Below, one piece after another: positions 5,358 to 36,297 of a stretch of 64,000 bases of DNA. The DNA lies in assembly GCA_963662265.2 (NCBI GenBank), contig CAXXHA010000036.1, forward strand, positions 128,001-192,000. The letters are read 5' to 3'. The notes under the pieces are model-generated. The model did no database searches, was not told the origin of the DNA, and saw only the letters and a list, made by a program, of their open reading frames with translations. Position 1 is the stretch's first letter; each line of letters begins with the position of its first letter. A program made the position numbers and the translations under genes. The DNA comes from Spirochaetia bacterium (GTDB lineage Bacteria; Spirochaetota; Spirochaetia; CADAEX01).

Positions 5358-5363
5358 CTTTAA

Positions 5364-9379: not shown

Positions 9380-9383
9380 TATT

Positions 9384-11163: not shown

Positions 11164-11171
11164 AAAACAAA

Positions 11172-11976: not shown

Positions 11977-11995
11977 AAATGATTAACCCCTTTTA

Positions 11996-12682: not shown

Positions 12683-12720
12683 TCCTGCCTCCACTTTATT
12701 AATATTAAATAAATATAATT

Positions 12721-12810: not shown

Positions 12811-12894
12811 AAACACATTTTATTTATAACATAGGAGGTAATTGCTCTAAAATCCGTTAACTATGGATGTGTTAAAATAAATTACAGTATTTTC

Positions 12895-14706
12895 TTATTT
12901 TAAATTATTCAGGTTTATTATACTCCTTCCTTCCATGTTCAACGTTTTTGCAGTTTCCCAGATTTCCGGCCACCAGTAGAGCATTTCCCCGCATCTTTTA
13001 AGATAGTTCCTGTAAATACAAAGAGCTTCCTTTTTTGTTACGAAGTTTCTGAATTCCTCAGGAATAACTGAATCTGATGAAAGGGCTTCTTTTTTCAGCA
13101 AATTGCAGTAATTTTCCATATCCTCTGCCCACCAGGAAGGTTTTTCTTCATAAAGATCAAGAAGGTAATTTATATGGTTTATTGTTCTTGTGAAATATCC
13201 AATCTGTAAAAGTTTCAGCTGTTCTTCGAAATCTGGCAGGCTGAATTTTCCAAACTCCTCTAATAATGTCCCAAGTTCTTTAATACGGGTTTTCCCGCCG
13301 GGATTGATAAACGATTTTGTCAGTTTTTCAAGGATGAGAGTTGAATATACTCCTGTCTGCAATGACACATTGTTAAAACTCTCTTTTAGAAACGGCGGTT
13401 TTTCATCCGGATTATGATACAACGCATAAGGTATATGGATTGTAAGTCCAGGTTCAAGGCAATTATGCAGTATAATTGCAAAGTTTGTATCATCACGTCT
13501 CCCCCTCGGAAAACATGGCGATAGCAGTTTTTTGTTATCAACACAAAAAGTACCGCCCATTAAATAACTGTCATTGTGAATTATATAGCTGTCAGAAGAT
13601 TTTATATTTAATCCGTTATCTCTGATTTCCCTGTATTTTTCTGAATCATGAAAATAATCTCTTTCAGGTCCCTGCTGAAACAGGGAGAGGTAAGGATTCT
13701 GAAACCATCTGCCTCCGCAGTATCCGGCGCCTATTGCTCTAACAGATAACTTGTTTTTTTCCATCTGCATTGCAGTTTCTTCTGTCAGATCTTCAAGTGA
13801 TATAAAATCCTTTTTCATGATCTCAGAATTCAATAAACTGATATTGGATTCAAAAAAAGTGAGTAGTTTGAAGTCCTTATTTTGAACAGTATTATTTTTT
13901 AATGTATTCATGTCAGGATAAAAAGTGGCATCTGAGTTGAAATCCCTGGCATACTGGTATCTGTCAGGCTGAATATTTTTTCTTGAAAAGAATCTGTATT
14001 CCATATCATCATCGCTTGAATAGAGATTGAATCCTGCAGATGCAAGTATCATTGTGTTTCTGTTGCCGCCTCTTGTATTATGCACGTATAAATCGTTGTC
14101 AACTGCAAGTGTGAAATCCACTATGTACTCAGGCAGTTTATCATTTGCAGCTTCATTTATCAGGTTTGAAAACTGCTTTTTATCATCATAGTTTATAAGT
14201 ACAATTTCTCCCGGATAATCTTTATTTCCATCGAATATAATTTTTTTGTTTTTGTCTGAAATTTTATAATCTGTTGTGTCATCGCATATTATAATAGGTG
14301 TTTTCCGGTTTCTGTATTCATCGTTACTAATTCTTGACCGGAGCCATCTGTCAAGCATACCGGGGCGGTCACAGGTTATACATCCTGATACGATTTTCTG
14401 TTTTGAAGCAAGTGTATTATTGTTGTTTTCAGGTTTGAATAAAAGATTTTCACTTCTGAGAAATTCATTGTTAATCCATTTATTAAAAATATCCATTATT
14501 ACAGATTGAGATAAGTCATGACTGTCAGTTTCCAAAACACTTTCAAGGTGTTGATTCAGTGTTTTGCATCCTGATAAATTTATTAAAATGTCTCCTTCAA
14601 ATCTGCTGATTACATGAGAAGTTTTATCATTGTTATTAATTACAAAATATGTCTCTTCTCCCGCTTTTTTGTATCCCAGAAACGCCGGATAATACTTCTC
14701 TGTCAA
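12895..14706 (-). CDS. RRE-like + GT-A/GT2 glycosyltransferase, paralog type B, unit 2 (intact, 603 aa)
   Basis: N-terminal ~85 aa 3-strand/3-helix pattern (YFVINN..TSHVIS..ILINLSGCKTL..IFNKWINNEFL); ITCDRP, IIICDDT, GGNRN, YSSDDD, GRRDDTNF; TTGA overlap with upstream type-A gene. Confidence 0.8.
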   Translation of the reverse strand: MTEKYYPAFLGYKKAGEETYFVINNNDKTSHVISRFEGDILINLSGCKTLNQHLESVLETDSHDLSQSVIMDIFNKWINNEFLRSENLLFKPENNNNTLASKQKIVSGCITCDRPGMLDRWLRSRISNDEYRNRKTPIIICDDTTDYKISDKNKKIIFDGNKDYPGEIVLINYDDKKQFSNLINEAANDKLPEYIVDFTLAVDNDLYVHNTRGGNRNTMILASAGFNLYSSDDDMEYRFFSRKNIQPDRYQYARDFNSDATFYPDMNTLKNNTVQNKDFKLLTFFESNISLLNSEIMKKDFISLEDLTEETAMQMEKNKLSVRAIGAGYCGGRWFQNPYLSLFQQGPERDYFHDSEKYREIRDNGLNIKSSDSYIIHNDSYLMGGTFCVDNKKLLSPCFPRGRRDDTNFAIILHNCLEPGLTIHIPYALYHNPDEKPPFLKESFNNVSLQTGVYSTLILEKLTKSFINPGGKTRIKELGTLLEEFGKFSLPDFEEQLKLLQIGYFTRTINHINYLLDLYEEKPSWWAEDMENYCNLLKKEALSSDSVIPEEFRNFVTKKEALCIYRNYLKRCGEMLYWWPEIWETAKTLNMEGRSIINLNNLK

Positions 14707-16503
14707 AACTGAGTTTCCTTTTTCTTGTTAAATTTTAAAGCCTTATCCCATATATCAGGCCAGTTTATCAGCAGGTTCCCGTAATCTCTGAAAAAACATT
14801 TATACTGTTTTATTGCGTCATCAAGTGAATAATTTTTTCTTAATTCTTTAGGAAGAGAGTTTTCTGGAACCAGCGACTGTTTTTCAAGGCGCATAATATA
14901 TTCTTCAGTATCCCTTGCCCAGTATTTTGGTTTTCTTTTATTTTCTGCCAGTTTTTTTTCAAGGTCCGCAATTGCATTGCCGGCATACTCGAGCCAGATT
15001 TTATGGAAAAAAAATAAAAAATCTTCATCTGATATCTGTGACAGCCAGACAAGCTGGTTTCCAAGCGCCTGATATGATATTTTATTAAGCTTCGATCCTA
15101 GATTTTTTCTCAAGTGTTCAATTGCCAGGACAGTGATTATCCCGAATCCAGCTGATGTATCAGTGTAATCTTCTTCAGTGAAAAAAGATTTATTACTCAT
15201 TTCATGATAAATTGCCAGTGGTATATGGGATACAAAGGTATTCTGGTTTAAAGCAAGCATTACTGCTATCCAGATACCATCCTGGTTCCTTCCATAGGGG
15301 GGGGTAGGGGGGGAGTATTTCACCTGAATCTATCCCCATTGCTGTTGTGATAAAAAAAGGGGCCCTGCTCAGGGTAAGATGCTCAGGCAGCATCAGGGAT
15401 ATAGGATTTTCCTTTATTTTACTGTATTCTGATTTGTTTCTGAAACCGCAGTATCTGTCCGGTTTGTTGTTGAAATAAACACCGAAAGGCCGGCTGAACC
15501 ATCTTCCGCCGTAGATTCCTAAGAATGCAGCTTTAATCGAACTGTCCCATCTTTTGAGAGAAAAGAAGGAGTCCGGTCTGAAATTGTCAGTTAATAATTC
15601 ATTATTAGATGTTACTGTTTTCTCAATAATTTCTCCGACACTTTTTCCAAGGATATTATTTATATATCGTAAAGGGTCGATTTCAGAAGATATAAGATTT
15701 TTTTTCAGCCTCTGTTGTTTTACAGAAAACATGGCTTTCAGGATCTTTGAAGTTTGATATTTCAAGATCATCTTCTAAATTACTGTGGGTAAAAAAATCG
15801 TATTTAGTATCATCATCGAAACTGATTATTTTACAGCCGGCAAGTTTTAGTAAAAGCAGTATTCCTGTTTCCCCCCCGGACCTTTGAGTATTGGATTGTC
15901 ATGAGACCCCATAACTGCAAATCTGATAATGCTTTTTATCTGTGCCTGTATTTTTCCTTCATACAGTAGCTTTAATAATTGATGTTTCTCCTTAATTCCG
16001 AAGTGTGAAATATTTAATCCGTAATTATTTTTAATATTGATACATAAAATCTTATTTTGCATCGATTATTTTCTGTGAAGATGAGTCGTCAAAAACTATT
16101 ACAGGGAGGTTTTTATAATCCGAATGTATTTTCTCTGCAATGCTGTTTAATGCTGATGAGAGAAGTTCCGGCCTGTCTGATGTGATAATTGATAATGCTG
16201 ATTCCTGTTCTGTTTCTGAAAAGTGTATTTTACTGCTTTCAAGCGGATATAACAGATTGGTTTCCAGTAATGATGAAAATATATAATCAATATCTTTATT
16301 CTCTGATCCTGTATTATATATCTTTTCAAGATCAATTATATGCTGACTGATTGTTTTTATGCCGGTCAGTTGCGAGTAATATATTGGCATCAGTTTTATC
16401 TATGAATGATGTTTTTCCTGTATTGTAATTATAGGAAATAAAACAATCAGGTCCCGTGGGAAAAAATGCCGGCAGAACCTGGTATGTATTTTTTTTTGAC
16501 CAC
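14703..16503 (-). CDS. RRE-like + GT-A/GT2 glycosyltransferase, paralog type A, unit 2 (several frameshifts)
   Basis: AGGAG RBS, GTG 16503; fragments IITSDRPELL/VFDDS (16052-16390), GPGG.RN, GIYGGRWFSRP (15202-15771), GRNQDGIW...WPDIW (14703-15323) are collinear with 9384-11163. Confidence 0.7.
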
Positions 16504-16532
16504 TTTCTCTCCTGTCTGAAAATCTGAATCTG

Positions 16533-17380
16533 TTAACTTAACCAGGAAAAGCTGGTGCTGTTAGTGTATTGGTAATATGTTACAGGCACTGAATCAGACA
16601 ATCCCGGTCTGAGCTCAAATTCATCGGTTATTCCTAAATAATCGTACTGACTAATTGTTGCACTTTTACTTACAAGTGCACGTGTTTTTCCTTCCCGGAA
16701 GAATCGTCTCTGCAGCATCAAATGTAACAGTTGCAGTATTTCCTGATACAGTTCCGGGTGTTCCTGTGGGATTGTCCAGGTTGAAAGTATAATGAGAATA
16801 GCTTGTATTTATTGATGAGATTTTATTACCGCTGAAATTTACAATTAATAACAAATGATCCGGGTCATAGAGCCTGAAATGGGAAGCTGTATAGGTTGAA
16901 TGTTTGGGGTACACTCATTCCCCCTGCATAACCTGTCGGGATAAGTGGTATTACAACTTCTGTTGAATCTATTCCATTAACTTCAAACACATCGGAAATC
17001 CCTGAGTATGAGTGGAAATAAATACTTCCCTTATCAGATCTGGTGCTGTAACGGTTCTATCAGCAGGGTCAGCGCGCTTGATACAGGAACATTCATAAGA
17101 GATAAATCGCCTGAATCGCCTGTAAACGGAATATAGGAATTAGCAAGAAGCGGTGAAGGGAAATCTTTCAGATATGTTATATCTGATGTCTTCTCGAAAT
17201 ATGAATCAATATTTCCGGAATATACAGCTACTTTTAAAAATGCCGTCAAATCCTGCCGGCGCTCCTTTTGCTGTTGTAGTTAATTTGATTGATACAGTCC
17301 CTGTTGAAGATTCCGGAGCCTGGTAACATGAAAAATGTAAGGACAGAATATACTAAAATAATTATTAAATATCTTTTCAT
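16533..17380 (-). CDS. Two-domain beta-rich lipoprotein, unit 2 (several frameshifts)
   Basis: AAGGAG RBS, ATG 17380, reconstructed lipobox ..TF(F)SC-YQAP; fragments ITYLKDFP, GISDVFEV, LPGRK, GITDEFELRPG..VPVTYYQY match the unit 1 and 3 lipoproteins. Confidence 0.65.
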
Positions 17381-17398
17381 TTTATACTCCTTTACAGG

Positions 17399-18065
17399 TT
17401 ACTGTATTTCCCAGGCAACATGTACTGTTCCTGTTGTGGGCGGCGGTGGAACAATTATTGGCGGGGATATCCTGCATCAGGCTGTGTTGATGTCTCAACA
17501 GTAAAGCTTTCTGTGACTGTTTCAACTGCAGTTGCAGGTGCAGTATACCCTGTTCCTGAAACAGACGATGATTCGCCTCCTGAAACAGTTGTTTTCTGAC
17601 CTATTTTTATTTGTAAAACTTATTCTGCCTGTAACAACTTCCAGTTTCCGTACAGATGACTCGAAGACTGTACCTCTTACAGCAGCTGTTGATACAGGTG
17701 TTTTTAATGTGAAATCATGTTTAAGCCCTGATGAAGTTTTTACATCAGCCTTTATTCTTCCCAGCTTGAGGTTCAGCTTTGTATTTACCTTGTTTCCGCT
17801 TATTGCAAGTTTGTCGACAGACATTCTGGTAAGCTGTTTTATGAAAACAGTTGATGAATCCGCTCAGGTCAAGCTCTGCATTAGATTTAAAACCTGTGGA
17901 AATGACAGATCCTTCAGGGATAATTCCCCCTTTTTCAGCTTTTACCCATGCTTTCCCGGGTTCCTTGATTTCTACTTTTCCGTTTACTGTTTTTATTGTT
18001 ATAAGATCTGCCGAATATAGAGGTGTTGCAACAATAATAACCAGTATTAAGAGTATATATTTCAT
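17399..18065 (-). CDS. Secreted FecR-domain protein, unit 2 (frameshifted)
   Basis: GGAGG RBS; N-terminus nearly identical to unit 3 (PLYSADLITI); TPVSTAAVRGT; reconstructed tail DIPPIIVPPPPTTGTVHVAWEIQ* (TAA 17399-17401). Confidence 0.8.
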
Positions 18066-18120
18066 TTATCCCTCCGTCTTAATACATCTAAAGGAAATAA
18101 TTTTATAATTGTATATCACT

Positions 18121-18136
18121 ATTATAGGACTTTTTC
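18121..18136 (-). promoter_or_regulatory. Putative -10 region of unit 2 (GAAAAAGTCCTATAAT)
   Basis: 15/16 identical to the motif upstream of unit 1 at 19850-19865; ends in consensus TATAAT. Confidence 0.55.
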
Positions 18137-18237
18137 CCTATAAATAAAAATAAAATATTAATGACTGCGTTTTAAAGCCTGATGAATCAGTTGGATGGAA
18201 TTTTACTTATTTATTATTATTGCATTTGTTTTAAGTT

Positions 18238-19069
18238 TCAGTCAACTATCGGTTGGTAATAATAGTAGTTAACCGGAACTGTTACTATAACGCCGGGCTT
18301 AACTTCAAACACATCAGATATGCCGAAATATGAGCCGGGAGTAAGGACTGGAGTGTTTACAAGATCTGATACAATTAACTGCATTTTTTTCCCTGCAACT
18401 GCAGTACTGGTAAATGTCATTGTATCGGGAGAACCGTCATTCTCGGAATTCTCATTTACCATAATTTGTTGTTGTCGGTTCACTGTTGAATGTTATATTT
18501 CCTTCAGAAGGTACATTTAAATTAATATATGAGGCCATGTCTTCAGGTGAATAAGCGCTGACAAAATCTTCTCCTGTGAATCCTGAGTGTTTATTTATCT
18601 TCAGAGTAGCTTTAGCTGTTTGTAGTATTGTGATTGAAACATGCAGAGGAGTGCTGTTTTCCAGAGTAAAAGGGTATGAAAGCCCTGCATATGCAAGGTA
18701 ATAGGGGTTATCAATACCTTCGCCGTAAAATTCAGCAAGAAGATTCAGCTCTTTTTCGGGCGGGATTCCTGAAATTAATATCTCTCCTGTATCTCCATCT
18801 ACAGGAATAGTTATTTCATCATGCCCGTTAATAGGTACTGTTTCCGGAAAATCTGAAAGATATGATATCCCGTTTACCGGATCCTGATTAACTTTGAATT
18901 CTCCTGAATTAAAGAGTCTTAAAACTAATTCTGTTTCGCCTCTGACCGGAGGTATTTTGATTACATCTGTGTCCTATTATTACTGATAATAGCCCCCTGA
19001 TTAGAAAACAGGTGCCTGGTAACAGGAAAAAAGTGAGAATATCAGCAGTAATAACAGTGTTTTTTTCAC
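18238..19069 (-). CDS. Two-domain beta-rich lipoprotein, unit 1 (several indels)
   Basis: GGAG RBS, GTG 19069, MKKTLLLLLIFSLFSC-YQAP; ISYLSDFP, GIPPEKELNLLAEF, AGLSYPFTL, GISDVFEVKPG..VPVNYYYY homologous to units 2 and 3. Confidence 0.65.
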
Positions 19070-23800: not shown

Positions 23801-26800
23801 AGAATAGAAAATTTCACACCAGCAGATCATCTTACTCGTGATGAGCTTGAAGAGAAGAGGGATGAACTTGCACTTGAGCTTGATATCTGTAAAGACCTTA
23901 AAGGTTATTACAGCCTCTCGCTGGTTAATGATTATTCAAATACAGAAAAGAGTGTGTATGAAGCTTTAATTGTAAAAGCGCTTAATACACTGAAGGATGA
24001 GTCATCTGTTATTACCGGTGAGGAAACTGTAAAAGAAAAACGAGCTCTAATAGTATCAAAAGAAACTGAATATAAAGAGAGAAATACAAAACTCACAGAT
24101 CTCCGGAATAAATTAAAAGAGTGGGAGAGTGAACAGTCAGAGTATTTCAATAAAAACATCGCTGATAAAAAAGCATCTCTGGAAGATGCAAAAGCTGAAA
24201 TATCTGCCTTGAGATCTGAATATCATGATCTTTTAAATAATTTTACATCTCTTACAGACCAGTACAGAGAAAAAAAGAAAGCAGTAGATGATTTACTTGT
24301 TGAATTTATGGAGAGCAAGTGGAATCTCTATGAGGCTGAGGAGCTTAAAGATTTTGCCTATTCTCCATATCCCCTGAGGAATACCGATCCTGAGGCAATT
24401 CTTAATAGACGCAGGGCAGATTTTGAAAAGGCAGACAGCCTTTACAGTGAAGTTCTTGATATCAAAACTTCACTTTCTCCCAAACCGGTAGAAGAAAGAT
24501 TCAACTCAGAATACCTTGATACTCTCCGGGAAAAGAAACAGCTTATCAGCAGTGTAAATTATCTTGGACATGCTTCTGATACACTTTCCCGTAATGTGAC
24601 AAGAGCTCAGGAAGAGGCTGGCAGATATTATGCAGTAATGAGAGACTCGATTGGAAGTATTTTCAGCTTTACTCTGCCTTTCAAACCTGATGTTGAAAGT
24701 TACAATGCAGGAGAACTTACTGATTTTAGCAGTTATGAGGGAGAAGAGAATATAAAAGCAGCAGTTAGTGATTACTTTAACAGTATGGATGCCTCTTCTG
24801 TTTTCAGTAATGATACCCTCAAATGGGCAAAGTCTGTATCTGAGCATGGGAGTCACTGCTTAAGGGATTTCGGGCTTGCATTCTATGCCGAGTACAAGAG
24901 TAAAATAACAGTCCCTCTGTATTCTGATCAGAACTACAATGAACTGAAACGGGGTAAATATGCAGGCTGTAATCCTGAAGGATATGCAGACAGCGTGGCT
25001 AAAGGAGTTCTTGCAGGTATAAAAAACAATCCTGAACTTTACAGGCATTATTCCTTTTTCAGGGCAATGCACTTATCTGGAAACACAACACTTGACTACT
25101 CATTCATGGGAAAGGATGTAAGTAAAGTTGCACATGACTACCTGTGGAGGGAATCAAAGGATGAAGAGCGACATGTAAAGAAAAAGCACTGGTGGAGTAA
25201 TTTCTGGAAGAGAACTGCAAAGAAGATGAGAAAGATGCGCCATAACATGACAGATGTGAACGGGAGTTATGAGCGGGGGAATAATCTGGGGCGATATTGC
25301 AAAGATATTTTCTGCCCGAATCGATTTTCTTGATAAGAAAGATGAGATAAGAACACTCACTGGTGGATGCGATGGGGAAATTGTATCTTTTGATGATTTT
25401 ATTATCTCACTTGATGCAGTTTCTGGGGAACTCCCGGATGAAGCAGGATCAGGTTTCAGGGATCTTCTTGAAAGCATATATGACTCGCTTACAGACGAGG
25501 ATAAAAATACAAGCTATAACCTGTCTGTAAAGACATTTGAAAAACTCAATGAGTACTTAAGCTGTAAGATATCTGAACTCAACATAATTACCGAGAAGCT
25601 TGAGAAAGAACGGGTAAGTCGTCTCAATAATTACAGGATATCCCTGAACAATCCTGAAGTCAGTTCAGATGAGGTCAAAAATCACTTCATAAATCTCTTT
25701 TTTGAATCAGAATACTCAACTTGCGAATCGTCGCAAATATCACTCTCCGAAGTTTTATTATCATATTCAGATTCTGACGACTTAAAAGGACGGGAAAGGA
25801 CTCTCTCCTTTGCAGCGAACGATGTAATGAAATACTTCTCAACTTCTCTAGATATAAAAAAGAGTGAGAATGATGAAAAGATAAAACTTCAGTACCTTGA
25901 ACTGAAGGATAAACAGGGACTTTTTGAATCTAGAATAGCAGAACTCTATGAGACAGGCGTAATTGAATGGAAGGTTGGTTTTACAAACCTTATCGGAATG
26001 AGGAAGAAGTGGAGAGATAATTTTCAAAGGGAAGCAATTCTTAAAGAAGAACTCTGGAAGAGTAAGTATAAAATATTAAAAGAAAACAGGAATAGCTGGA
26101 TAGAACAAAGTACAGCCGCAGTACAGAGGGGGGAGGCAGGGCGTCTTTCAAGGGAAATCGGGATAAACGCGGATAAACTCCTGTCAGAGAGCGAGATGAT
26201 TATAATACCTGACATTAAGAATTCTCCAGAACTTGATAACATAATTGAAGAGGTGACAGGGGCTGAGAAATTATCCTCTCTCATATCAGCTGCTTCCTTT
26301 TATTCGGCGAAGAAGGAGTCTGATAATATAACTCCTTCATCATACCTTCCTGAGATTGGAAGTTTCGGAGGAAACGATCTCCGGCTTGAAAGCTATGCAG
26401 AGAACTTATCAAGTGAAATAAGAAAAAGGGCAGCCCTGCTTGAGGCCCTGAAAATGGCAAAGACTGTAACAGATGTAGAAGACGGGATTCTTGAGAATAT
26501 AGAATCAGCCAACAGAAGTACAGAAAAGTCACTTGCTGATACGCTTGAAGGGAAAGGGTACAGGAAAAAAGGAAATATCTTCTCCCGGAAAGCTATAATA
26601 GATATGACACTTCTGGGAGGGATAGAAGAAGAGCTTCATGAGATTGAAGCCTATCATTATTTTACAGCGCCTGAATTTAAAACAGGTGCAGACCTTACAC
26701 GGGACTCATTATCCTCAATGAGCCGAAGGGAAATTGAATTAAAGGTTGAAAAAGCTGTTGCCAACCTTAAAAGATACGGAGAGATTATATTCGGAAGCAA

Positions 26801-29378
26801 AACTTCAAAGGAAGCTTCAGACTGGAAAGGGTTTGATGAAGAGTTTAAATCCTATGCAGGAAATGCTGAAAAGTCCTTCTCTTTATCGCGTCAGGCAACT
26901 AAATACAGAGACACAAAAGGACTTTTTTACATACACCTGGGATATGCCCCGGTAATGGACAGCAAGTCTCCCGAAGTTGTTAAAACTGAAGGATACGGCG
27001 AATACGGAAGAATCTATGAGCTGTTCTTCCGGAACGAGGCAAGGCTTGGCCGAGGTATTGCAAGCCTTGATCAGCCCTGGTATTCCCAGAAGCTCTGGGA
27101 TGATGACAGGGACAATGATGGGGAATCTGACGGACTATTCGGGGCACCCAGTGTCAGAAGCATGGGAAACATTGCAATGTCAGTTGTTTCAGGCGGGGCC
27201 GGTATGTGGGCTTTCGCAGTTAATATGATTGATGATGCTGCTTTCACTGCAATGGATATCGGAAGCGGAATAACAGACTGGGATGACGGGATGATGTCTC
27301 TGGGTAAGCAGACAACAGCCGGAGCTGTGACCCAGGGGCTTGGAAACCGGTTCAAGATAGAGACAGACTCATTTCTTGCCTCAGCTGCACATACAGGACT
27401 GAAAACAGCATCCACAAACCTTGCGACTACTGCGATAAACTCATTTGACTTTAATTCCAGAGGAATCTATTTCAGTACAGACACATTTAGACGAAACTGG
27501 CAAAGTGATCTTTACGGTAGAGGAGCAGTGCCCGGGTATATAAACAGCATGGGAACTGCAGGACTTGATTCAACACTTACAGGTTTCTACGGCAAGGATC
27601 TTTCTTGCGGTAAAGCGTTAAGCTCAACAATCGCAGGCAGCGCAGCAAGTATATATGAATACAACACTCTAGGTAGTACAAAGCTCAATCTGCTGAATTC
27701 ATCTGACCTCTTTTTCCGGAACAGTGGATTAAAAGACAGATTCGGAGGAACAGGTATCCTGGAAATGGGAATCGGAGACGGGGGAAGTTTATTCGAGTTC
27801 GGGATAAATGGCCAGAATATGAGTGCTTCTCAGATAACATCAGCTTATAAGGGTATAAATACATATTATCAGAATGCACGGATCTATTCATCCGGGCAGG
27901 AAAATATAAAGGATGCTAGAGTCGCGATGAGGGCTCTTTATTCCCGCAGCACTTCAGATGCTGCTGCATCGCTATTATACCGCAACCTGCTGTCAGGTAA
28001 GGATAATCTTGAAATCGACAAGTCTCTTGAAGGAAGAGCGCAGACTGTTAAAAACAGCAGCGGAGGAAGAACTGTTAAAGTTTCATCATTGGGAAATGAC
28101 TATTACAGCCGTCTTCACCTTGGTGTGGTTTTGGGACATGAAGCATACAGGGACGGGACAGATAATGGCAGAGAAGTACAGAAATCCGAGACAGTCGATG
28201 CTGTTTACAATCATACAAAAATGGCCCTTGATATGGAAAACGACTATACCGGGTTTATTGAATCTGATGAAGCATTGATAAAAGATTTATTGAGATTAAG
28301 CAAAGCAGGTAATACTGGAGATTATGAAAAATCTGTTCTGAGCGAGTATGAATCGGGGAGCGATTACTGGAAAGTTATAAAGCATAAAGATGGGAGTATA
28401 ACAATGCTTGATGACGGAAGCGATGACGTTACTTTGGTTGATGAAGAGACAGGTGCAGAAAAAATCTTTGAATATACCGGAGGAAGCAAGACAGGTTTTA
28501 TTGCGGGTTCTCTTGGTTTAAGCAGGGACGAAGTCAATTACCAGATGGGGCCTGAAGCGGGGTGGAGTTATATTGACGGCAGGTGGGAAAACAAAACTGA
28601 TGATAAAACTGTAAGGTTTTCACAGGCGCAGATAGAAAAGATGAGTATCCGATTCAAAGAGCTGAGACGCATCAGTAAAGCTGAAAATGTTGATGAGGGA
28701 ATTTTCAGGAAAATAGAAAATGCTGTCATTAAAGGAAAAAACTGGGTTTCTGAAAAATATACTGCTGTTAAAAATGTTTTTAATTACAGAAATTATATAT
28801 CAAAGAAAGCTGTATCTGAATCGTCCGCATCTTCATATTACAGTAAAGGTAAAATCCTTCCATCTGAAATTCTTACAGAAGGTTATATCTCCCAGACTGC
28901 GCATGAGGAAGAAACCCATTTTCTTGAAAACTGGTACACAAAAGGGCATCCCGCAGTTGATATCACAGGAAAGGGGAAGGTCCGGTTCCCTTATAATCTT
29001 GAACTTTTAAAAACAGGGAAAAATAACAACCGCCTTCTCTACCGTATAGCAGGTTCTGATGATTATCTTTATTTTACCCATATAAACCCCTCAGAATCTG
29101 AAGCTTTGCAGAAATTACTGGAAAAAAGCAGCGGCAAGAGTGTATCCTATAAAGCAGGGAAAGCTTTATTCAGCTATCCGAAAGTTAAGGATAAATATTC
29201 CACTGATCTTCACATACATGTTGAAATGTACAGGAAAAAGGATGACGGCTCTTACAGTTTTGCTGATCCTCTGACCGGCGAGTTCCTTCCGGATTTTGGG
29301 TATATGCATAGTACAAAAGGTGATATATATAGTGTTTGGCGAATGAAATTACCAAAAAATCAAAAATATTGGAATTAG
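20849..29378 (+). CDS. Giant (~2,840 aa) exoprotein / polymorphic-toxin-like protein with C-terminal M23-like peptidase; three frameshifts
   Basis: GGAGG RBS; four overlapping ORFs joined near 21375, 22610 and 25280; long coiled coil, KLWDDDRDNDGESDG motif, Gly/Ala hydrophobic segment, LGHEAYRDG motif, terminal HPAVD...HIH. Confidence 0.7.
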
Positions 29379-29794: not shown

Positions 29795-30529
29795 CTACCG
29801 CATCTTCCTGATTCTGACTTCTGTCCCGCTTAGTCCTTTCAGCTTATCAACAAGCAGCATCGGGTCTGTCTCGCCGTAATGGTAGGGGTAGATGATTTTT
29901 GCCTTTATGGTTTTTGCCGCATCGGAAGCCATGTCCGGGTCCATGGTATAGGGGAGGTTCATTGGAATAAATGCTATATCAATGTTTTTGAGCTGTTTCA
30001 TCTCAGGGATATTTTCGGTGTCCCCTGCAATATATATTCTCTTGTCTCCCAGTGTCAGAATATATCCGTTTCCCTCCCCCTTGGGATGGTAGGGAATTCC
30101 GTTGTCCCTTTTGTGAACAATATTATAGGCAGGCACTGCCTCAATATTTATACCCCTTACAGTTTCTGAATCCCCGTTTTTCATCACTGTTCCTGTGCCC
30201 AGTTCAGTGAAGACTTTTTCAGAAACAACAAAGTCTGTATTTGATTTCCTGATTTTATCAATTGCATCTTTATCAAGATGATCCCTGTGCTGATGGGTTA
30301 TTAGAATCATATCTGCATCAGGGAGGAGTGAGTAGTCTGCCAGTTTGCCGTAAGGATCTATGTGGATGCTTATTCCCCTGAACAGGATATGAAGAGTCCC
30401 GTGGCCTATAAAAGTGATTACGATATCTCCTTCAGAACTTTTAATAGTGTCAGATTCAAAATTGTTTTCGCTGAATGTTGAAAAGGGTGTAATCAAAACA
30501 AGTAACGGAAGTATGAATAAATATCTCAT
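29795..30529 (-). CDS. Secreted MBL-fold metallo-hydrolase
   Basis: FIGHGT, IDPY, ITHQHRDH, YIAGDT, PMNLPYTM, YPYHY. Confidence 0.88.
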   Translation of the reverse strand: MRYLFILPLLVLITPFSTFSENNFESDTIKSSEGDIVITFIGHGTLHILFRGISIHIDPYGKLADYSLLPDADMILITHQHRDHLDKDAIDKIRKSNTDFVVSEKVFTELGTGTVMKNGDSETVRGINIEAVPAYNIVHKRDNGIPYHPKGEGNGYILTLGDKRIYIAGDTENIPEMKQLKNIDIAFIPMNLPYTMDPDMASDAAKTIKAKIIYPYHYGETDPMLLVDKLKGLSGTEVRIRKMR

Positions 30530-30676: not shown

Positions 30677-33600
30677 TTAAGCGCTCCCCTTGAAGTCGAA
30701 GCTTATCTTTTTCTGAAGTTCCCCTATGTTGTTAACCGCATTTTTCAGCATTGCGTTTTCAAGATGTGTCAGGCTTCCCTGCTCTGCAAGGTTGTCCGGC
30801 CGTTTTTCTTCAGATACCGATGCAGCCTGCCTCTTGAGCCTTACCTGGTTCAGAAAGTCGTAGATATGGGTAATCTCTTTATGCGTTGCAGGGTGTATTA
30901 TCCCTTTTTCCATAAGCGCATCTAAGCGGGAGAATGTATTTGTTTCTTCTATTCCGTGTTTAAGCGAATAAAGCCGTGCGAAATTGACTATAGGGAGGAT
31001 GAGCTCCTTTATATCGATGATTTTTTTTGTCCCCTCTGATGAATCGAATATTATGTTTCCGAAAAGGTTTACAGGTACTTTGTAGAGGGCTGAACTGTTT
31101 GCAAGGTGCAGAAAAAACTGGGGGAATGATTTCATTGTATCTGATATGTGCTTCCCGAGATTATCTGTAAGTTCGGAACTTCCGTAAATCATCCGGTAGT
31201 CGAAAAACATATTGAAATGAAGAATCTCCTCCGGTTCCGGTTTTGTTATCCACTTTGTGAAGTATTGTTTCCATTCAGAGAGAGTGCAACACCACTTGCG
31301 GTTTTTTCCCATTATCCCGCCGCTGCAGAACGGAAAACCAGCCTTGTTAAGCTCATCTGAAATAATTTCCCCGAGGCTCAGGAAGTAGTCTCTTGCCTTT
31401 TCAATATCTTCATCTTTATCAGGCTGTTCAAAAATTATCGCGTTATCCTGGTCTGAAGAAAGTGTCTGCTCTCTCCTCCCCAGGCTTCCGGGCGCGATGA
31501 ATGCGAACCTTTCAGGGGGAGTCCCTATTTCTGTAATTGCTGTTTCAATTATTTTCTTTACAAGAATATCTGTAAATGTGGTTACTATTCTCATTATATT
31601 GAGAGACCTGTTTCCTGTTTCAATAAGTGCCTTGATAATGTAGGGGACATGGCTGAATGATTTCTGGAGTTCCCTCATTGTAGATGCGTTTTCGAGTTCC
31701 CCTGCTGTGACAGCTGCCGGGTATTTATGAAATTCAATAAGGTCTTTTGCCCTGACGACATATCCGGTTTCATGATCCCCGTAGTCCAGGATAAGATGGC
31801 GTATATTGTATGTCTTCATAATGGAAACAGCTTCGAAAATAAGTATTCTGCTGTCTGCTTTCCTGACAGGGGAGGTCATTATTGTATAAACAGCATCATC
31901 CGCATTTCTTTCCTCGGCAAGGGCTCTCGACCTGATATCCTTGTCTGTTACAATTCCCAGGATTTCTCCGGAATCAGACTTTACAAGAAAGGAACTCGAG
32001 TTGCTGCTGTTCATCATTTTTGCACCGTTTCTGATGCTTGTCCTGAAATTCATTACAGGTATCTGGCGGGATATTTCAAATGCCGGTTCACTCAGGAACA
32101 GAAGTGAACTCTGAAGCTCGCTTATAAGCCTGTTACGTCTGAGTTCAGCTTTGTGTATAGTCACCCGGCTGCTTATTTCCCTTACATTGACTATGTATCC
32201 CTCTTTTCCCGATATTTCGATACGGCCTGTTTCCATAAGGACAGAGATCCTTTTCCCGTTTTTTCCGGTTATTTCTGTCTCTGTCATGGAAGGGACAATT
32301 TCTCCCTTCTCAAGCATTTCCCCTATGACTGTTGAATCTGAATCAGAATGAAGCTCCCTGAAAAGATCGGAAGCTGTCAGCATCAGGAGTTCGTTCTCAC
32401 TGTATGAAAGCATTTTTCTTACTGATGGGTTTGAGTAGGTGCATTTCCCGTTCTGTATTATCAGTGTTCCTTCATTTGTCCTGTCAGCAAGCGCCCTGTA
32501 TTTTTCATCAGATTTCTGAAGTCTTATCCTGCTTTCCTTTAATACTTTTTCCTTTTTTATGTTCTGAAGTACAATTACCAGAAGGATTATGAAAAGCAGC
32601 ATTGTAATGAAAAGCGAAATATCAACAAGATATTTTTCAAGCCTGGCTATTTCACTCATAACATCATCAATATAAATTCCGGTCCCTACAATCCATCCCC
32701 ATTTTTTATAAAGCTTTACATATGATATTTTTGGAGCAACAATGTCTTTTTCGTCTTTCCACTGCCACTGGTACTGTACAAACCCCTCGCTGTTCTTCCT
32801 GACTGTATCGACTATTTTCAGAAATACAAAATCCCCTTCTGTATCTGTGTAGCTGCTCAGGTCGCTGCCGACAAGATCTTTTCTGTAGGGATGAGCAATC
32901 ATCTCAGGTTTTTGGTCTGTTATCCAGAAATAGTCCTTGTTTTCCTTCCCGTACCGGATGTGGCTTATTACTGCGGCTGCCCGGTTTTGGGCCTCTTCAA
33001 TTGTTATATCGCCTTTTTCATAATCGCTATTAAATTCATCAAGAATACTGACTGCTGAATGAGTCAGCTCCATTATCATCTCTTTTTTCCTGGACATTAG
33101 AATTTCCTCTGTCTTCGGAATAAAAAGATTGAATATGGAATAGGTGAAAAGGATTATACCGGCAGCAGCAGGGAGTATGATTTTTATATATGGTACTGTT
33201 TTCTGAAACCGGGTGAAAAAGCCTTTTTTCTGTACAATTTCAGGTATATATTTGATTTCATGTTCAGAATCAATATTTCCAAGGCCATTCCTGAAATTTA
33301 CCCAGTCTTCTATACTGATGTTGACAACTGCATTACTCATCTGTTTTACAGCTTTCCCGTGATAATCTGTTCCTGCAGAGATCAGAAGACTGTTTGATTC
33401 AGCAATTGATCTCAGTTTTTTTTCTGTTTCCCTGTTATATGCCGAATATATTCCTTCTATGCCGTCAAGTTCTTTCGCTTTTAGAACAGTAATTGCATCC
33501 TGAAGTATTTTATAATCTTCTGACAGGGTAAGCGGATGTGCAAGAAACACTTTTCCCCCCGCATTATGTATCAGTTCAATGACTTTCTCATAATGGGGTA

Positions 33601-33901
33601 TATTTCTGCTGCTTCCTGCTATTTCACTGTTCAGTTCAGAGTTATCAATATCAAAGTTATAGCCCAGGAGATGGATTTCGCCCCACTGTGAAAATGCTGA
33701 TATTTCAATTCCGCTTATAAACCCTATGCCCCGTTCTTTAAGAATATCTCTGAAAGGGCGGAGACCCTCGAGTGTGTCATGATCGGTTAATGATGCCACC
33801 TGTACATTTTTTTCAGAAAGAAAATTTGCCAGTTCCGCGGGACTCATCTGGCCGTCGCTCAGGTTTGAGTGGCAATGCATATTTACTGTAATAAATTCCA
33901 T
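30677..33901 (-). CDS. PHP - TM - sCache_2 - TM - PAS - CBS pair - DUF294 nucleotidyltransferase - DUF294_C fusion protein
   Basis: PHP motifs HCHSNLSDG, TDHD, GIEIS, EIHLLGY, LAHP, GTDYHG; Cache RYG..DYFWI..MIAHP..PKISYV..WGWIVGTGIY between two TM helices; CBS GIVTDKDI/IRHL; NTase GSLGRREQ..SDQDNA; DIKE..LPIV.FAR..TNTFSRL. Confidence 0.88.
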   Translation of the reverse strand: MEFITVNMHCHSNLSDGQMSPAELANFLSEKNVQVASLTDHDTLEGLRPFRDILKERGIGFISGIEISAFSQWGEIHLLGYNFDIDNSELNSEIAGSSRNIPHYEKVIELIHNAGGKVFLAHPLTLSEDYKILQDAITVLKAKELDGIEGIYSAYNRETEKKLRSIAESNSLLISAGTDYHGKAVKQMSNAVVNISIEDWVNFRNGLGNIDSEHEIKYIPEIVQKKGFFTRFQKTVPYIKIILPAAAGIILFTYSIFNLFIPKTEEILMSRKKEMIMELTHSAVSILDEFNSDYEKGDITIEEAQNRAAAVISHIRYGKENKDYFWITDQKPEMIAHPYRKDLVGSDLSSYTDTEGDFVFLKIVDTVRKNSEGFVQYQWQWKDEKDIVAPKISYVKLYKKWGWIVGTGIYIDDVMSEIARLEKYLVDISLFITMLLFIILLVIVLQNIKKEKVLKESRIRLQKSDEKYRALADRTNEGTLIIQNGKCTYSNPSVRKMLSYSENELLMLTASDLFRELHSDSDSTVIGEMLEKGEIVPSMTETEITGKNGKRISVLMETGRIEISGKEGYIVNVREISSRVTIHKAELRRNRLISELQSSLLFLSEPAFEISRQIPVMNFRTSIRNGAKMMNSSNSSSFLVKSDSGEILGIVTDKDIRSRALAEERNADDAVYTIMTSPVRKADSRILIFEAVSIMKTYNIRHLILDYGDHETGYVVRAKDLIEFHKYPAAVTAGELENASTMRELQKSFSHVPYIIKALIETGNRSLNIMRIVTTFTDILVKKIIETAITEIGTPPERFAFIAPGSLGRREQTLSSDQDNAIIFEQPDKDEDIEKARDYFLSLGEIISDELNKAGFPFCSGGIMGKNRKWCCTLSEWKQYFTKWITKPEPEEILHFNMFFDYRMIYGSSELTDNLGKHISDTMKSFPQFFLHLANSSALYKVPVNLFGNIIFDSSEGTKKIIDIKELILPIVNFARLYSLKHGIEETNTFSRLDALMEKGIIHPATHKEITHIYDFLNQVRLKRQAASVSEEKRPDNLAEQGSLTHLENAMLKNAVNNIGELQKKISFDFKGSA

Positions 33902-34032
33902 AAAGTTACCTGAAACACATTATACTATGAAAAACGTCATGAATATAAGAAAAAAATCGACTGCGTAGTCGGTAATTAACTTGACGCGAATGATGAAAAC
34001 AAGTAATGATTGAGAAAAAGGGGGTATTGTTG

Positions 34033-34323
34033 ATGGATCATGGACCAGCAATAGAGTATGGACCGGATAATGCCGCAGGTTACAAAACAAAACTTGGGCT
34101 TATTCTGTTTTTTGTCTATGCTTCAATTTACGGTATATTTGTATTGATAAATACAGTTAATCCGGTATTGATGGAAAAAGAAATTTTCGGAGGGCTGAAT
34201 CTTGCTATAGTATACGGATTCGGACTAATCATTTTTGCTATACTTCTTGGTATTGTCTACAACATTTTCTGTACAAAAAAAGAGAAAGAACTTAATACAG
34301 ATGTCGAGGGGGGTGATAAATGA
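34033..34323 (+). CDS. DUF485 (YjcH-like) small membrane protein, partner of ActP
   Basis: MDHGPA start, two TM helices, GLNLAIVYGFGLI; overlaps the start of the symporter. Confidence 0.8.
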   Translation: MDHGPAIEYGPDNAAGYKTKLGLILFFVYASIYGIFVLINTVNPVLMEKEIFGGLNLAIVYGFGLIIFAILLGIVYNIFCTKKEKELNTDVEGGDK

Positions 34324-36230
34324 TTTATTCTGCTTCGCCTTTTGCCGTCGTTATCTTTATTATGTTTGTTATCACAGTTCTCGGCCTGTCGTTTTATTTT
34401 GCAAGACAGACAGGATCATCGAAAGGCTACTATACTGCGGGGGGAACAATTTCCTGGCCTGTGAACGGAATTGCATTTGCAGGAGATTACCTGTCTGCTG
34501 CTTCATTCCTCGGTATCTGCGGAATGATTGCTACAGCCGGATATGACGGTTTTCTCTATTCGATAGGTTATCTTGCCGGGTGGGTAGTCGCTTTGTTTGT
34601 AGTTGCAGAGCCTATGAAGAGGCTTGGTAAATATACTTTTACAGATGCTCTTGATTCAAAATTCAAATCAAAGGGGATTCAGCTTGCTGCCGGTATAAGC
34701 AGTATTGTTGTTTCTGTTTTTTATCTCATTCCGCAGATGGTTGGTGCAGGTGCACTTGTAACGCCTCTTCTGGGCCTTCCCCACTATGTCGGTGTTATAA
34801 TGGTTGGAAGTATTGTAATTGTGATTGTAGCTACTGCAGGGATGAAATCAACAACATATGTACAGTTCCTTAAAGGGGGACTTTTAATCATCTTTTCAAT
34901 CATACTTGTGTTCAGTATCATTGGTAAGGGTTTAAGCAGAAAACCTTCTGATGATTACCATGATTTCAAGAAGCTTGAAGCTGTCATGGAAGGCGGTAAA
35001 GCAGTTCCTGTTGATTCAGCATATGAAGTTACAGCAGTCCAGTCTGCCGGCGATCTCGAATTTGTCAAACTTGCAAATAAAGGTATAGAAAGATGGTGGC
35101 AGGTTGAAAAGAGTGCATCATCTGTTGCTCTTGTTGAATGTCTATCTAAAACAAAAAAAGGTGACGGCTCTGTTCTTTATAACGGTAGACCAAAGGAAGA
35201 TGGTGCTTTCTTCCCTGTCGGCCATTTCAACAGCATTAAGATGGACGGCAAAGAGGTTAACAATACAGGTAAACTGGGACCGTTAAGCTTTTTCTCAGTA
35301 ATCAGGGAAAGCAAGATTACAAGATTCCCCAAAGCAGTTATTGATAATGGTAAAGACAAGGTATATATCTGGTACCAGAAGGTTACTGACGGAAGCAAAG
35401 TACTCCGTCCTGGTCTCAAGTTCAAGATTGACAAAGGCTCTTCAGCCACATCAAAACTCAATTTTGTATCTCTGATGCTTTCACTCTTTTTCGGAACAGC
35501 AGCTCTGCCTCATGTCCTTATCAGATACTACACAGTTCCAAGTCCTGCAGATGCCAGAAAATCAACAATTGTTGCTATCGGCGCTATCGGGCTTTTCTAT
35601 GTGCTTACACTCTATATGGGAATCGGAGCAATGGTTAACGGTGTTCTCGATGTGGAAAGCAGCAACATGGCTGCCCCCCTGCTTGCAAAGACATTCGGAG
35701 TATTCCTGTTTGCTGTAATTTCTGCAATTGCATTTGCAACAGTACTCGGAACAGTGAGCGGTCTTATTGTTGCTGCATCAGGCGCTGTTGCCCATGACCT
35801 CATGACTAATTTTATGGGAATAAATATGAGCGATGCGGGTAAGGTTAAGGCTGGAAAGATCGCGGCAATTTGTGTCGGCGGTATTGCAATACTGCTGGGG
35901 ATCCTGTTCAAGGGGATGAATGTTTCATTCCTTGTAGGGCTTGCCTTTGCTGTTGCTGCATCTGCAAATCTGCCTGCAATAATTATGATACTGTTCTGGA
36001 AAAAGACAACTGCAAAGGGTGTTACTGCTTCCATAGTAACAGGGATGATTTCAGCACTTGGAATTATTCTCCTTTCACCGAGCATGTATTCAAGGTACGG
36101 TCTCAACCCTGCAGATGCAGTTTTTCCGATTGATAATCCCGGAATCATATCAATTCCGCTTTCATTTATTGTTCTTGTTGCTGTTTCACTCATGACTCAG
36201 AAAAAAACTTCTGAAGTGAAAGAATCATAA
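34320..36230 (+). CDS. actP: Cation/acetate symporter (SSS family, ActP-like) with a large hydrophilic insertion
   Basis: NGIAFAGDYLSAASFLG, YLIPQMVGAG, GTAALPHVLIRYYTVP, AVAASANLP, NPGIISIP. Confidence 0.88.
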   Translation: MIYSASPFAVVIFIMFVITVLGLSFYFARQTGSSKGYYTAGGTISWPVNGIAFAGDYLSAASFLGICGMIATAGYDGFLYSIGYLAGWVVALFVVAEPMKRLGKYTFTDALDSKFKSKGIQLAAGISSIVVSVFYLIPQMVGAGALVTPLLGLPHYVGVIMVGSIVIVIVATAGMKSTTYVQFLKGGLLIIFSIILVFSIIGKGLSRKPSDDYHDFKKLEAVMEGGKAVPVDSAYEVTAVQSAGDLEFVKLANKGIERWWQVEKSASSVALVECLSKTKKGDGSVLYNGRPKEDGAFFPVGHFNSIKMDGKEVNNTGKLGPLSFFSVIRESKITRFPKAVIDNGKDKVYIWYQKVTDGSKVLRPGLKFKIDKGSSATSKLNFVSLMLSLFFGTAALPHVLIRYYTVPSPADARKSTIVAIGAIGLFYVLTLYMGIGAMVNGVLDVESSNMAAPLLAKTFGVFLFAVISAIAFATVLGTVSGLIVAASGAVAHDLMTNFMGINMSDAGKVKAGKIAAICVGGIAILLGILFKGMNVSFLVGLAFAVAASANLPAIIMILFWKKTTAKGVTASIVTGMISALGIILLSPSMYSRYGLNPADAVFPIDNPGIISIPLSFIVLVAVSLMTQKKTSEVKES

Positions 36231-36265
36231 AACCACCCTGCAGGGGCATCCCGGATTGTTATTCA

Positions 36266-36297
36266 GCAGCCTGCTTTTTGCAGGCTGCTTTTTTTTG
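36266..36297 (+). terminator. Rho-independent terminator after actP
   Basis: AGCAGCCTGC-tttt(t)-GCAGGCTGCT followed by a T-run. Confidence 0.85.

Follow-up and report, generated by a model that had tools for sequence, protein, structure and literature searches.

This analysis concerns a 64,000-nucleotide stretch of DNA from a Spirochaetia bacterium (GTDB lineage Bacteria; Spirochaetota; Spirochaetia; CADAEX01; assembly GCA_963662265.2, contig CAXXHA010000036.1, positions 128,001 to 192,000 of the forward strand), referred to here as the window, and in particular a gene on its reverse strand, P0001, that encodes a predicted membrane receptor with a nucleotidyltransferase (NTase) output. The open reading frame (ORF) starts with ATG and continues for 1074 amino acids with zero internal stops, as judged from the ORF list and from translation of the window, in agreement with the uninterrupted frame described in an earlier note on this DNA. 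Pfam matches, all of which exceed the curated cut-offs, and hydropathy give the order, from the N-terminus, of a PHP domain, a transmembrane (TM) helix, an sCache_2 domain, a second TM helix, a PAS domain, a CBS region, DUF294 and DUF294_C (Table 1). Nine lysine or arginine residues lie just after the second TM helix and two just before it, and this count places the sCache_2 domain outside and the PHP domain and PAS-CBS-DUF294 region inside. The periplasmic sCache_2 domain between two TM helices and the PAS domain (residues 466-577) that had been proposed were both recovered. The proposed CBS pair stands in part: one repeat (residues 611-659) passes the Pfam threshold by itself, and the second is recognised only through the alignment of residues 620-733 with the Bateman region of IMP dehydrogenase. 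No DNA-binding domain, RNA-binding domain or PF00027 cNMP-binding domain was found in a Pfam scan of the receptor, and a genome-wide domain search returned a single DUF294 match in the source genome. It is virtually certain that this is a real gene with the PHP-Cache-PAS-CBS-DUF294 architecture.

The output module consists of DUF294 (PF03445; 144.3 bits against a cut-off of 21, E 2.9e-42) and DUF294_C (PF10335; 111.4 bits against 22.5, E 4.1e-32), and 6636 clusters at 50% identity match it at E<=1e-3. Protein adenylyltransferases of the GlnE/DrrA type are characterised by the motif G-[SG]-x(9-13)-D-x-D together with a third carboxylate. In the receptor the motif is provided by G805 and S806 followed by D817-x-D819 (residues 805-819, GSLGRREQTLSSDQD), with D901 downstream as the third carboxylate. 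The glycine, the serine and both aspartates of the motif are invariant or near-invariant in aligned homologs and D901 is invariant, which bears out the claim that the NTase motif is intact. No match to PF03710 (GlnE) was found by Pfam in P0001, and a sequence profile of the NTase module searched against the PDB returned designed helical proteins only and no NTase, so that a structure-based search was needed. With the model of the module (pLDDT 91.6) Foldseek gave four matches at E<=1e-3, all of them DrrA or GlnE (E 3e-9 to 4e-7, TM-score 0.64-0.71). Comparison of the model with representative structures by VIA-align gave Z scores of 26.2 for 1v4a (299 residues aligned, root-mean-square deviation (rmsd) 2.9), 26.0 for 6yx5_B and 24.3 for 3k7d_B; after GlnE and DrrA, to which 292-299 residues were aligned, the next-best Z score was 12.9. 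These model-based searches point to the fold of the protein adenylyltransferases GlnE and DrrA, as the description of the motif as GlnD/GlnE-like had anticipated. GlnE and DrrA each attach AMP to a tyrosine of a protein. DUF294_C has been grouped with the C-terminal domains of GlnD and GlnE in the available part of one study (PMC3710099).

At the opposite end of the protein, the PHP domain matches Pfam over residues 8-117 (37.3 bits, cut-off 26.4). All nine metal ligands of the complete set claimed for it are present (H9, H11, D16, H41, E66, H77, H122, D179 and H181); in alignments of 31 and 32 homologs each of them is either invariant or conserved to at least 90%, and they align with the equivalent residues of 2yb1, 7ug9 and 3e0f. 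A profile of 32 such PHP domains matched 3e0f, 7ug9 (RNase AM), 2yb1 (Cv1693) and 9etk in the PDB at E 8e-41 to 1.8e-38, and a model of the domain (pLDDT 91.4) had 7ug9 as its top Foldseek match (E 3.9e-19, rmsd 1.4 A over 178 columns, 29% identity). By sequence and model, the domain is assigned to the barrels of the RNase AM/Cv1693 clade (COG0613). An insertion subdomain of ~50-70 residues in the solved enzymes is missing from the window PHP domain and from 8 of 31 aligned relatives, and its NCBIfam scores are 100.5 and 94.8 bits against equivalog cut-offs of 400 and 375. The complex predicted for the NTase module and the PHP domain (score 0.00, mark 0.32) has no bearing either way on whether the two interact.

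The sensory part of the receptor can be related to domains with defined ligands. Its sCache_2 domain (Pfam 139.4 bits, E 1.2e-40) matches the sensor domains of Adeh_3718 (4k08, E 7.7e-29) and PscD (5g4y, E 5.5e-28) in the PDB. PscD has been reported, in the available text, to contact propionate through Y90, W92, H103, F126, Y143, W145 and K156 and to bind glycolate, acetate, propionate and pyruvate at micromolar levels (PMC5062169). By alignment, these residues correspond to Y324, W326, H337, F360, Y377, W379 and K391 of the receptor, so that all seven are kept. All seven are also identical in 77 of 78 related loci (defined below), the sole exception having F in place of W326. In NCBIfam the Cache part is matched best by the model for the sensor kinase MctS, which we take to be a monocarboxylate sensor. 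The earlier suggestion of a short-carboxylate binder is thus consistent with a pocket that, by sequence, appears to be that of C2/C3 monocarboxylate sensors, and the domain very probably senses a C2 or C3 monocarboxylate.

This architecture is widespread. A homolog search in 5.8 billion proteins gave 649 matches at E<=1e-3 among the candidates scored, and PHP, sCache_2 and DUF294 occur together in 112 of the 120 homologs among the matches listed; no names are on record for the close homologs. When genomes representing one species each were searched, 565 of 579 candidate stretches were seen to encode relatives of the receptor, the best 80 coming from Chloroflexota, Armatimonadota, Spirochaetota, Planctomycetota, Bacteroidota, Ignavibacteriota, Myxococcota and others. 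Four related genomes from two genera contain collinear, stop-free orthologs over residues 1-1073 or 3-1073 (49-77% identity). The PHP fusion is therefore not unique to this assembly, and the chimeric join that the earlier note had considered is refuted. Among 33 further representatives of the NTase module, Pfam detected PHP in six and no other fused phosphoesterase; the rest are Cache, PAS or cNMP forms, some of them probably fragments.

Evidence for a pairing of transferase and phosphoesterase came from the surroundings of the relatives. ORFs were called in the best 80 stretches from the species-representative genomes (labelled L with a number) and the domains of the window receptor were marked by tblastn; L076 and L081 were left out as they showed the Cache protein only, leaving 78 loci with a Cache-DUF294 gene. 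The two nearest unlabelled genes on each side were compared with Pfam (136, 65 and 39 proteins) and all loci were then searched with representatives of the families found. PHP is present in 34 of the 78 loci, in 33 as a fusion (including L016, in which the frame is broken) and in one, L072, as an adjacent upstream gene. None of these 34 loci has a Metallophos or TIM-barrel partner within up to 8 kb per side. Among the 44 loci that lack PHP, 31 have a Metallophos (calcineurin-like) gene of ~250 amino acids within 183 bp, often overlapping the receptor gene, and three have an AP_endonuc_2 gene, encoding an EndoIV/xylose-isomerase-like TIM barrel, within 389 bp. In three more the receptor itself bears a histidine-rich cytoplasmic N-terminal domain of ~145 amino acids that is DUF6915-like, giving a phosphoesterase-type partner of one of these three kinds in 37 of the 44. 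The Metallophos partners give weak YfcE/cAMP-phosphodiesterase-like matches, and the scores of the AP_endonuc_2 partner would allow a sugar epimerase no less than a phosphodiesterase. The DUF6915 resemblance lies just under the Pfam cut-off (E 1.6e-5) and was also seen with Atlas (29 of 30 matches, score 0.91-0.92); this family has been recorded mostly from phages. The position of the domain, which is that of PHP, suggests a phosphoesterase-like role for it.

Several of these loci deserve individual description. A clade in which the DUF6915-like domain replaces PHP and CBS is absent comprises L049 (7557-7991), L036 (7551-7985), L068 (5652-6086) and L060 (10484-13078, reverse strand). L060, from Desulfobacter latus, also has a soluble CBS-DUF294 paralog divergent from an RNase_T exonuclease gene, and in total four DUF294 genes lie within 14 kb of this stretch (4031-18458), one for the soluble CBS form and three for Cache forms. 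The same stretch encodes a 681-amino acid RNase_T exonuclease fusion protein, a universal stress protein and a DUF3360 membrane protein, and DUF3360 also adjoins the receptor of L049. In L072, from an actinobacterial metagenome-assembled genome, PHP is a separate ORF of 264 amino acids (8001-8795), 45 nucleotides upstream of the rest of the receptor (8840-11782) and in another frame, which could be either a true split gene or a frameshift error.

A tree was built of 76 NTase modules, six loci having been left out because of truncation or stops. In it the PHP group encloses the DUF6915-like clade and one Metallophos row, and a Metallophos clade encloses the soluble exonuclease-linked paralog. 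As far as sequence comparison can tell, the distribution of partners fits a transferase that depends on a phosphoesterase, with different ones recruited in different lineages. The earlier proposal that PHP stands in for an exonuclease fits this complementarity (0 of 34 loci against 37 of 44), together with the soluble paralog beside RNase_T, and no RNase_T exonuclease was found by Pfam among the genes adjoining the window receptor.

The second association is with carboxylate transport. The window encodes, divergently from the receptor, a small DUF485 membrane protein and an SSF permease. The SSF match of the permease is 222.6 bits; its closest families are MctC (452.4 bits against an equivalog cut-off of 670) and ActP (397.6 against 750), both below the equivalog cut-offs. 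Its hydrophilic insert (window 34932-35459, residues 205-380) is predicted to be periplasmic from hydropathy and positive-inside counts. Most receptor-linked ActP-like genes encode an insert of 167-244 amino acids, the corresponding segment being ~31 in canonical-length forms and ~60 in DUF4212-type permeases. The insert has no match to a Pfam family, and with Atlas its best score was 0.80, giving no lead at or above 0.9. Across the relatives a carboxylate transporter of the SSF family is nearby in 55 of the 78 loci. An ActP-like gene (called by tblastn at E<1e-40) is present in 27 of the 34 PHP loci, in 18 on the same strand just upstream, in four divergent as in the window and in five convergent. 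The 44 PHP-less loci include 15 with an ActP-like gene and 13 with another SSF permease, 11 of these 13 with a DUF4212 small subunit. SatP acetate channels were seen in three loci. In a set of 31 related genomes, a receptor ortholog was found in five, and these were also the only ones with an ActP homolog, encoded next to it; as the five belong to two genera, the co-occurrence amounts to few events. The expected linkage to actP is accordingly confirmed, both by the PHP loci and by adjacency in the five related genomes. No gene for acetyl-CoA synthetase (acs) was found among the neighbours scanned.

The spacer between the receptor gene and the DUF485 gene measures 104 bp to the first ATG (34006) and 131 bp to a likelier start at 34033, which is preferred because an AAGGGGG ribosome site lies 8 nucleotides upstream and because of the N-terminus of the family: linked DUF485 proteins begin M-L/G-H-E/G-P-A, and the window protein does likewise from 34033. 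The spacer of about 130 bp given in the earlier note holds for this start and not for the first ATG. Alignment of five related genomes showed that the best-conserved parts of the control region are a palindrome, CGAC-N6-GTCG (33958-33971), and TTGAC (33981-33985), about 10 bp apart. The palindrome lies roughly midway between the divergent genes and in this resembles a shared operator. TCGAC-N6-GTCGG has four matches in the genome itself against 11 for the reversed control and is thus not enriched; the idea of a regulon defined by the palindrome was dropped for this reason.

Table 1. Features of the receptor gene P0001 and of the divergent transporter genes (window coordinates)
Feature	Position	Strand	Basis
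Whole receptor gene P0001, 1074 aa	30677..33901	-	ORF list, translation, Pfam domains
PHP domain, cytoplasmic, RNase AM/Cv1693-like barrel without insertion subdomain (predicted), residues 1-210	33272..33901	-	Pfam, NCBIfam, PDB profile, model, Foldseek
TM helix 1, about residues 238-261	33119..33190	-	hydropathy
Periplasmic sCache_2 domain, residues 268-419	32645..33100	-	Pfam, PDB matches 4k08 and 5g4y
TM helix 2, about residues 421-451	32549..32641	-	hydropathy and positive-inside count
Cytoplasmic PAS domain, residues 466-577	32171..32506	-	Pfam, TIGR00229
CBS pair/Bateman module, residues 611-733	31703..32071	-	one Pfam CBS repeat, IMP dehydrogenase alignment, CBS proteins in PDB
DUF294 nucleotidyltransferase domain, residues 752-891	31229..31648	-	Pfam, model, fold matches GlnE and DrrA
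Pol-beta-type motif GSLGRREQTLSSDQD, residues 805-819	31445..31489	-	translation; conservation in homologs
DUF294_C helical domain, residues 927-1070	30692..31123	-	Pfam; HEPN/KNTase_C-like structural matches
Divergent control region	33902..34032	.	alignment of 5 related genomes, promoter scan
DUF485 (YjcH-like) small membrane protein; likely true start 34033	34006..34323	+	Pfam
SSF permease, ActP/MctC kind, 636 aa, insert of ~176 aa after TM6	34320..36230	+	Pfam, NCBIfam, hydropathy
Terminator-like hairpin, 10 pairs and T run, after permease gene	36265..36289	+	sequence scan

Other neighbours vary. In the window a gene for a metal hydrolase of the metallo-beta-lactamase (MBL) fold (Lactamase_B_3, PRK00685-like; 29795-30529, reverse strand) lies 148 nucleotides downstream of the receptor gene on the same strand. 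It is kept beside the receptor in two genomes of the same genus and was not seen within 1.5 kb in two genomes of the second genus, and since it is also unlinked in the 80 loci it was rejected as a further partner. Beyond it neither a 1369-amino acid ORF (25269-29378, forward strand) nor the 126-amino acid ORF that follows it has a match to a Pfam or NCBIfam family. Between the transporter and phosphoesterase genes of L015 (5855-7138), L043 (5826-7127) and 22 further loci, many of them from Bacteroidota, Chlorobiota and Ignavibacteriota, lies a gene for a conserved protein of ~420 amino acids without a Pfam family. A related ORF in L068 (11017-12378) passes the model for the outer-membrane porin DcaP (28.7 bits against a cut-off of 27), so this protein may be a carboxylate porin. 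In two Bacteroidota loci, L028 (8954-9643, reverse strand) and L061 (10855-11589, reverse strand), a gene immediately next to that of the receptor or of its phosphoesterase encodes a Crp/Fnr-type regulator (cNMP_binding and HTH_Crp_2). In L055 (12543-15029, reverse strand) a Pat-like protein acetyltransferase with CoA-binding, ATP-grasp_5 and GNAT domains is encoded two genes from a PHP-type receptor; Pat-like enzymes acetylate acetyl-CoA synthetase.

Soluble relatives of the receptor have entered the literature through work on Pseudomonas, in reports of which parts were available. In P. putida KT2440 pp_0354, encoding a CBS-DUF294 protein, and pp_0353, encoding an RNase_T protein, form an operon bound by ErdR, and their homologs in P. 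aeruginosa PAO1 adjoin actP and yjcH (PMC9927547). Both are targets of MxtR/ErdR (CrbS/CrbR). The earlier note had stated that DUF294 proteins are usually soluble and found beside actP and an exonuclease gene; support for this comes from the Pseudomonas papers and two of the loci rather than from a census. On pyruvate the exonuclease mutant and the actP-I mutant of P. putida grew poorly and the pp_0354 mutant grew normally (PMC9927547). These phenotypes could be accounted for by an inhibitory writer and its eraser, in which case a strain without the eraser would keep the uptake path locked under the mark and a strain without the writer would suffer no harm. The authors of that study speculate in the available text that the exonuclease degrades mRNAs (PMC9927547), and the more recent preprint itself proposes a protein modification by analogy with the uridylylation of PII (bioRxiv 10.64898/2026.09.07.749794). 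A preprint by Price et al. was rejected as a source on DUF294, the passage in question being concerned with DUF2946.

Taken together, the best reading of the receptor is that acetate-gated, reversible nucleotidylation of a protein controls monocarboxylate uptake, with a target and a chemistry that we infer; for this reading as a whole our confidence is evenly balanced. The periplasmic sCache_2 domain would bind a C2/C3 monocarboxylate (acetate, propionate, pyruvate, glycolate or lactate), as the conserved pocket suggests, and the signal would pass via TM helix 2 to the PAS domain and the CBS pair, the latter perhaps adding an intracellular nucleotide or energy input. PAS and CBS would then set the activity of the NTase, for which the modelled fold suggests a GlnE/DrrA-like enzyme. 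The cytoplasmic PHP domain, tethered through TM helix 1, would hydrolyse the phosphodiester made by the NTase, a role suggested by the comparative genomics of the pairing, and writer and eraser would be joined in a single chain, as in GlnD, though built from different domains. The likeliest substrate would be a protein of the neighbouring short-chain carboxylate uptake path, either DUF485-ActP or its regulator, although this target is a guess, and neither a kinase nor a DNA-binding domain would be needed for the outside supply of acetate to adjust uptake in this way. The parts of this scheme differ in strength. That transferase and phosphoesterase act as an opposed pair is probable, that the NTase substrate is a protein is somewhat favoured, and that this substrate is ActP or DUF485 is rather doubtful. 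It may tentatively be suggested, at less than even confidence, that DUF294 enzymes, as signalling outputs, form a third large class of protein nucleotidyltransferases in bacteria. In the receptor, outside acetate would then directly gate a reversible AMPylation or UMPylation of the machinery for carboxylate uptake or of a regulator of it, and interchangeable phosphoesterases would remove the mark (PHP here; Metallophos, the EndoIV-like barrel, the DEDDh exonuclease or DUF6915 elsewhere).

A number of observations weigh against this reading. Within the stretches examined, 7 of the 34 PHP loci lack an ActP gene, three of these having a cut flank, and 7 of the 44 PHP-less loci lack a partner, two of them on truncated contigs and one, L060, having RNase_T two genes away. 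The partner classes follow clades in the tree of NTase modules: the distribution of PHP takes three changes, only one being forced by well-supported branches, and all partner labels together take 10 changes against a minimum of five over the 76 rows, so that the complementarity reflects a handful of switches and not dozens. The insert of ~176 amino acids in ActP was ruled out as a cytoplasmic target as it is predicted to lie outside, a conserved tyrosine before the first TM helix of DUF485 was rejected as the modification site as it is phenylalanine or absent in many linked DUF485 proteins, and no modification target site emerged in the comparisons of DUF485 or ActP. For the top fold match of the NTase, 1v4a, the label names only the N-terminal domain of GlnE. 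This half of GlnE removes AMP, and the fold therefore leaves the direction of the reaction unset. The nearest relatives of the PHP domain are a 5'-3' exoribonuclease and a pAp phosphatase, which cut the 3' side of a nucleotide and not a bond between nucleoside monophosphate and protein, and their insertion subdomain is lacking in the window. Deletion of PP_0353 and PP_0354 has been reported in part of the preprint to cause only moderate inhibition on propionate and pyruvate (bioRxiv 10.64898/2026.09.07.749794), and the two P. putida reports, as far as their available parts go, thus differ on the effects of deletion. No biochemical study or activity of any DUF294 protein was found in the literature searched, and the catalytic steps proposed here are inferred.

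The main rival to protein nucleotidylation is the idea that outside carboxylate leads DUF294 to synthesise a free nucleotide as a signal (a modified nucleotide, or an oligonucleotide of cyclic or linear form), which the partner would degrade and through which a separate effector would control the transporter genes. The partner families all cut nucleotides or oligonucleotides, whether as RNase AM/pAp phosphatase-like PHP, YfcE/cAMP-phosphodiesterase-like Metallophos or RNase_T, and the soluble relatives carry cNMP-binding domains. The palindrome conserved between the divergent promoters makes it likely that a DNA-binding regulator is involved, the receptor itself has no domain of this kind, and L028 and L061 have Crp-family regulators next to the receptor or to its partner. 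The fold comparisons, however, put GlnE and DrrA far ahead (Z 24-26), with an oligonucleotide synthase (9dbh) at Z 6.8 and a TUTase at a Foldseek E of 0.25; the reported kinship of DUF294_C with the C-terminal domains of GlnD and GlnE (PMC3710099) likewise points to proteins as substrates, and Pfam scanning of the neighbours revealed no conserved effector in the loci. A free nucleotide signal is, on this evidence, unlikely.

It could also be that PHP serves the transferase rather than reversing it, by removing pyrophosphate or a nucleotide by-product, or that it is a tethered domain for housekeeping turnover of nucleotides or RNA. PHP domains of its clade, going by the names of the matched families and entries, hydrolyse pAp and 5'-phosphorylated RNA ends, and a score of 100.5 bits against an equivalog cut-off of 400 means that its substrate is not fixed by family. 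A DEDDh exonuclease or an EndoIV-like barrel would, however, be an odd stand-in for a pyrophosphatase, yet these occupy the same place in relatives. The either/or pattern of partners (0 of 34 against 37 of 44) argues for one shared role tied to the transferase, and in the available account of P. putida loss of the exonuclease has a phenotype and loss of the transferase none (PMC9927547), which fits opposition. A helper role thus seems improbable. Slightly less probable again is a transferase that acts on RNA or on a small-molecule metabolite, with the phosphoesterase trimming or recycling the product. The partners are nuclease-like, aminoglycoside nucleotidyltransferases form the next tier of fold matches and the speculation on mRNA degradation mentioned above (PMC9927547, in part) would agree with this, but small-molecule and RNA transferases reach only Z 5.8-9.3 or a TM-score of ~0.3, against Z 24-26 and 0.64-0.71 for GlnE and DrrA, and Pfam found no RNA-binding domain in the receptor. 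That the PHP fusion is an artefact of assembly or gene calling can be dismissed with near certainty, as a slightly lower G+C content in the 5' part of the gene (0.37 against 0.41-0.43) is its sole support and the fusion recurs in 112 of the 120 homologs listed, in 33 loci of other species and in full-length, stop-free form in four related genomes, with its catalytic residues conserved.

If reversible protein nucleotidylation is indeed the output, it would be a new output chemistry for bacterial receptors and a mode of transmembrane signalling that dispenses with both kinase and DNA-binding domain and occurs in hundreds of species from many phyla. It would explain the puzzling exonuclease phenotype of P. 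putida and provide several orphan phosphoesterase families with a function, among them the phage-associated DUF6915. DUF294/COG2905 proteins are common, and the available Pseudomonas reports describe them as co-regulated with acetate and pyruvate uptake. The membrane forms are tractable: their ligand is fairly predictable, the writer and the putative eraser are in one chain or operon and the adjoining transporter provides both a short list of targets and a read-out. Should the model fail, the either/or pairing of one transferase with unrelated phosphoesterases would still want an explanation.

Each part of the receptor belongs to a known family, and the pairing of DUF294 with an exonuclease was already recognised as a puzzle; the literature searched contained no description of a membrane receptor that combines a DUF294 output with a fused PHP domain. 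With the monocarboxylate chemoreceptors PscD, McpP and Adeh_3718 (PDB 5g4y/5g4z and 4k08; E 5.5e-28 to 7.7e-29) it has in common all seven ligand-contact residues, but these proteins have the signalling output of methyl-accepting chemotaxis proteins in place of a nucleotidyltransferase and a phosphoesterase. Its PHP domain has the nine metal ligands and the predicted barrel fold of RNase AM (YciV/TrpH) and of the 3',5'-nucleoside bisphosphate phosphatase Cv1693, and unlike these it is without the insertion, scores far below the equivalogs and is fused to a receptor. With GlnE and DrrA-SidM it is predicted to share the two-domain fold, in which a Pol-beta NTase is followed by a helical domain, and it has their G-S...D-x-D motif, at a sequence identity of 13-15% and with different sensory domains and a membrane anchor. 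The COG2905-type proteins such as PP_0354 (cNMP_binding-CBS-CBS-DUF294-DUF294_C) have the same output module, CBS domains and a partner phosphoesterase and are likewise tied, in the available reports, to the acetate and pyruvate uptake genes actP and yjcH. These are soluble, with a cNMP-binding input and a separate DEDDh exonuclease gene, whereas the window receptor has a Cache domain between two TM helices, a PAS domain and a fused PHP domain, and its neighbours are the MBL-fold hydrolase, DUF485 and the SSF permease. In architecture alone, the organisation is reminiscent of GlnD, a single polypeptide with a sensor, an NTase as writer and a metal-dependent phosphohydrolase as eraser. The analogy is one of NTase, metal-dependent phosphohydrolase and sensor domains in one chain: GlnD is soluble, with an HD eraser and ACT sensors, neither of which was found by Pfam in the receptor, and the receptor is membrane-bound, with PHP in the place of HD and Cache, PAS and CBS domains in the place of ACT.

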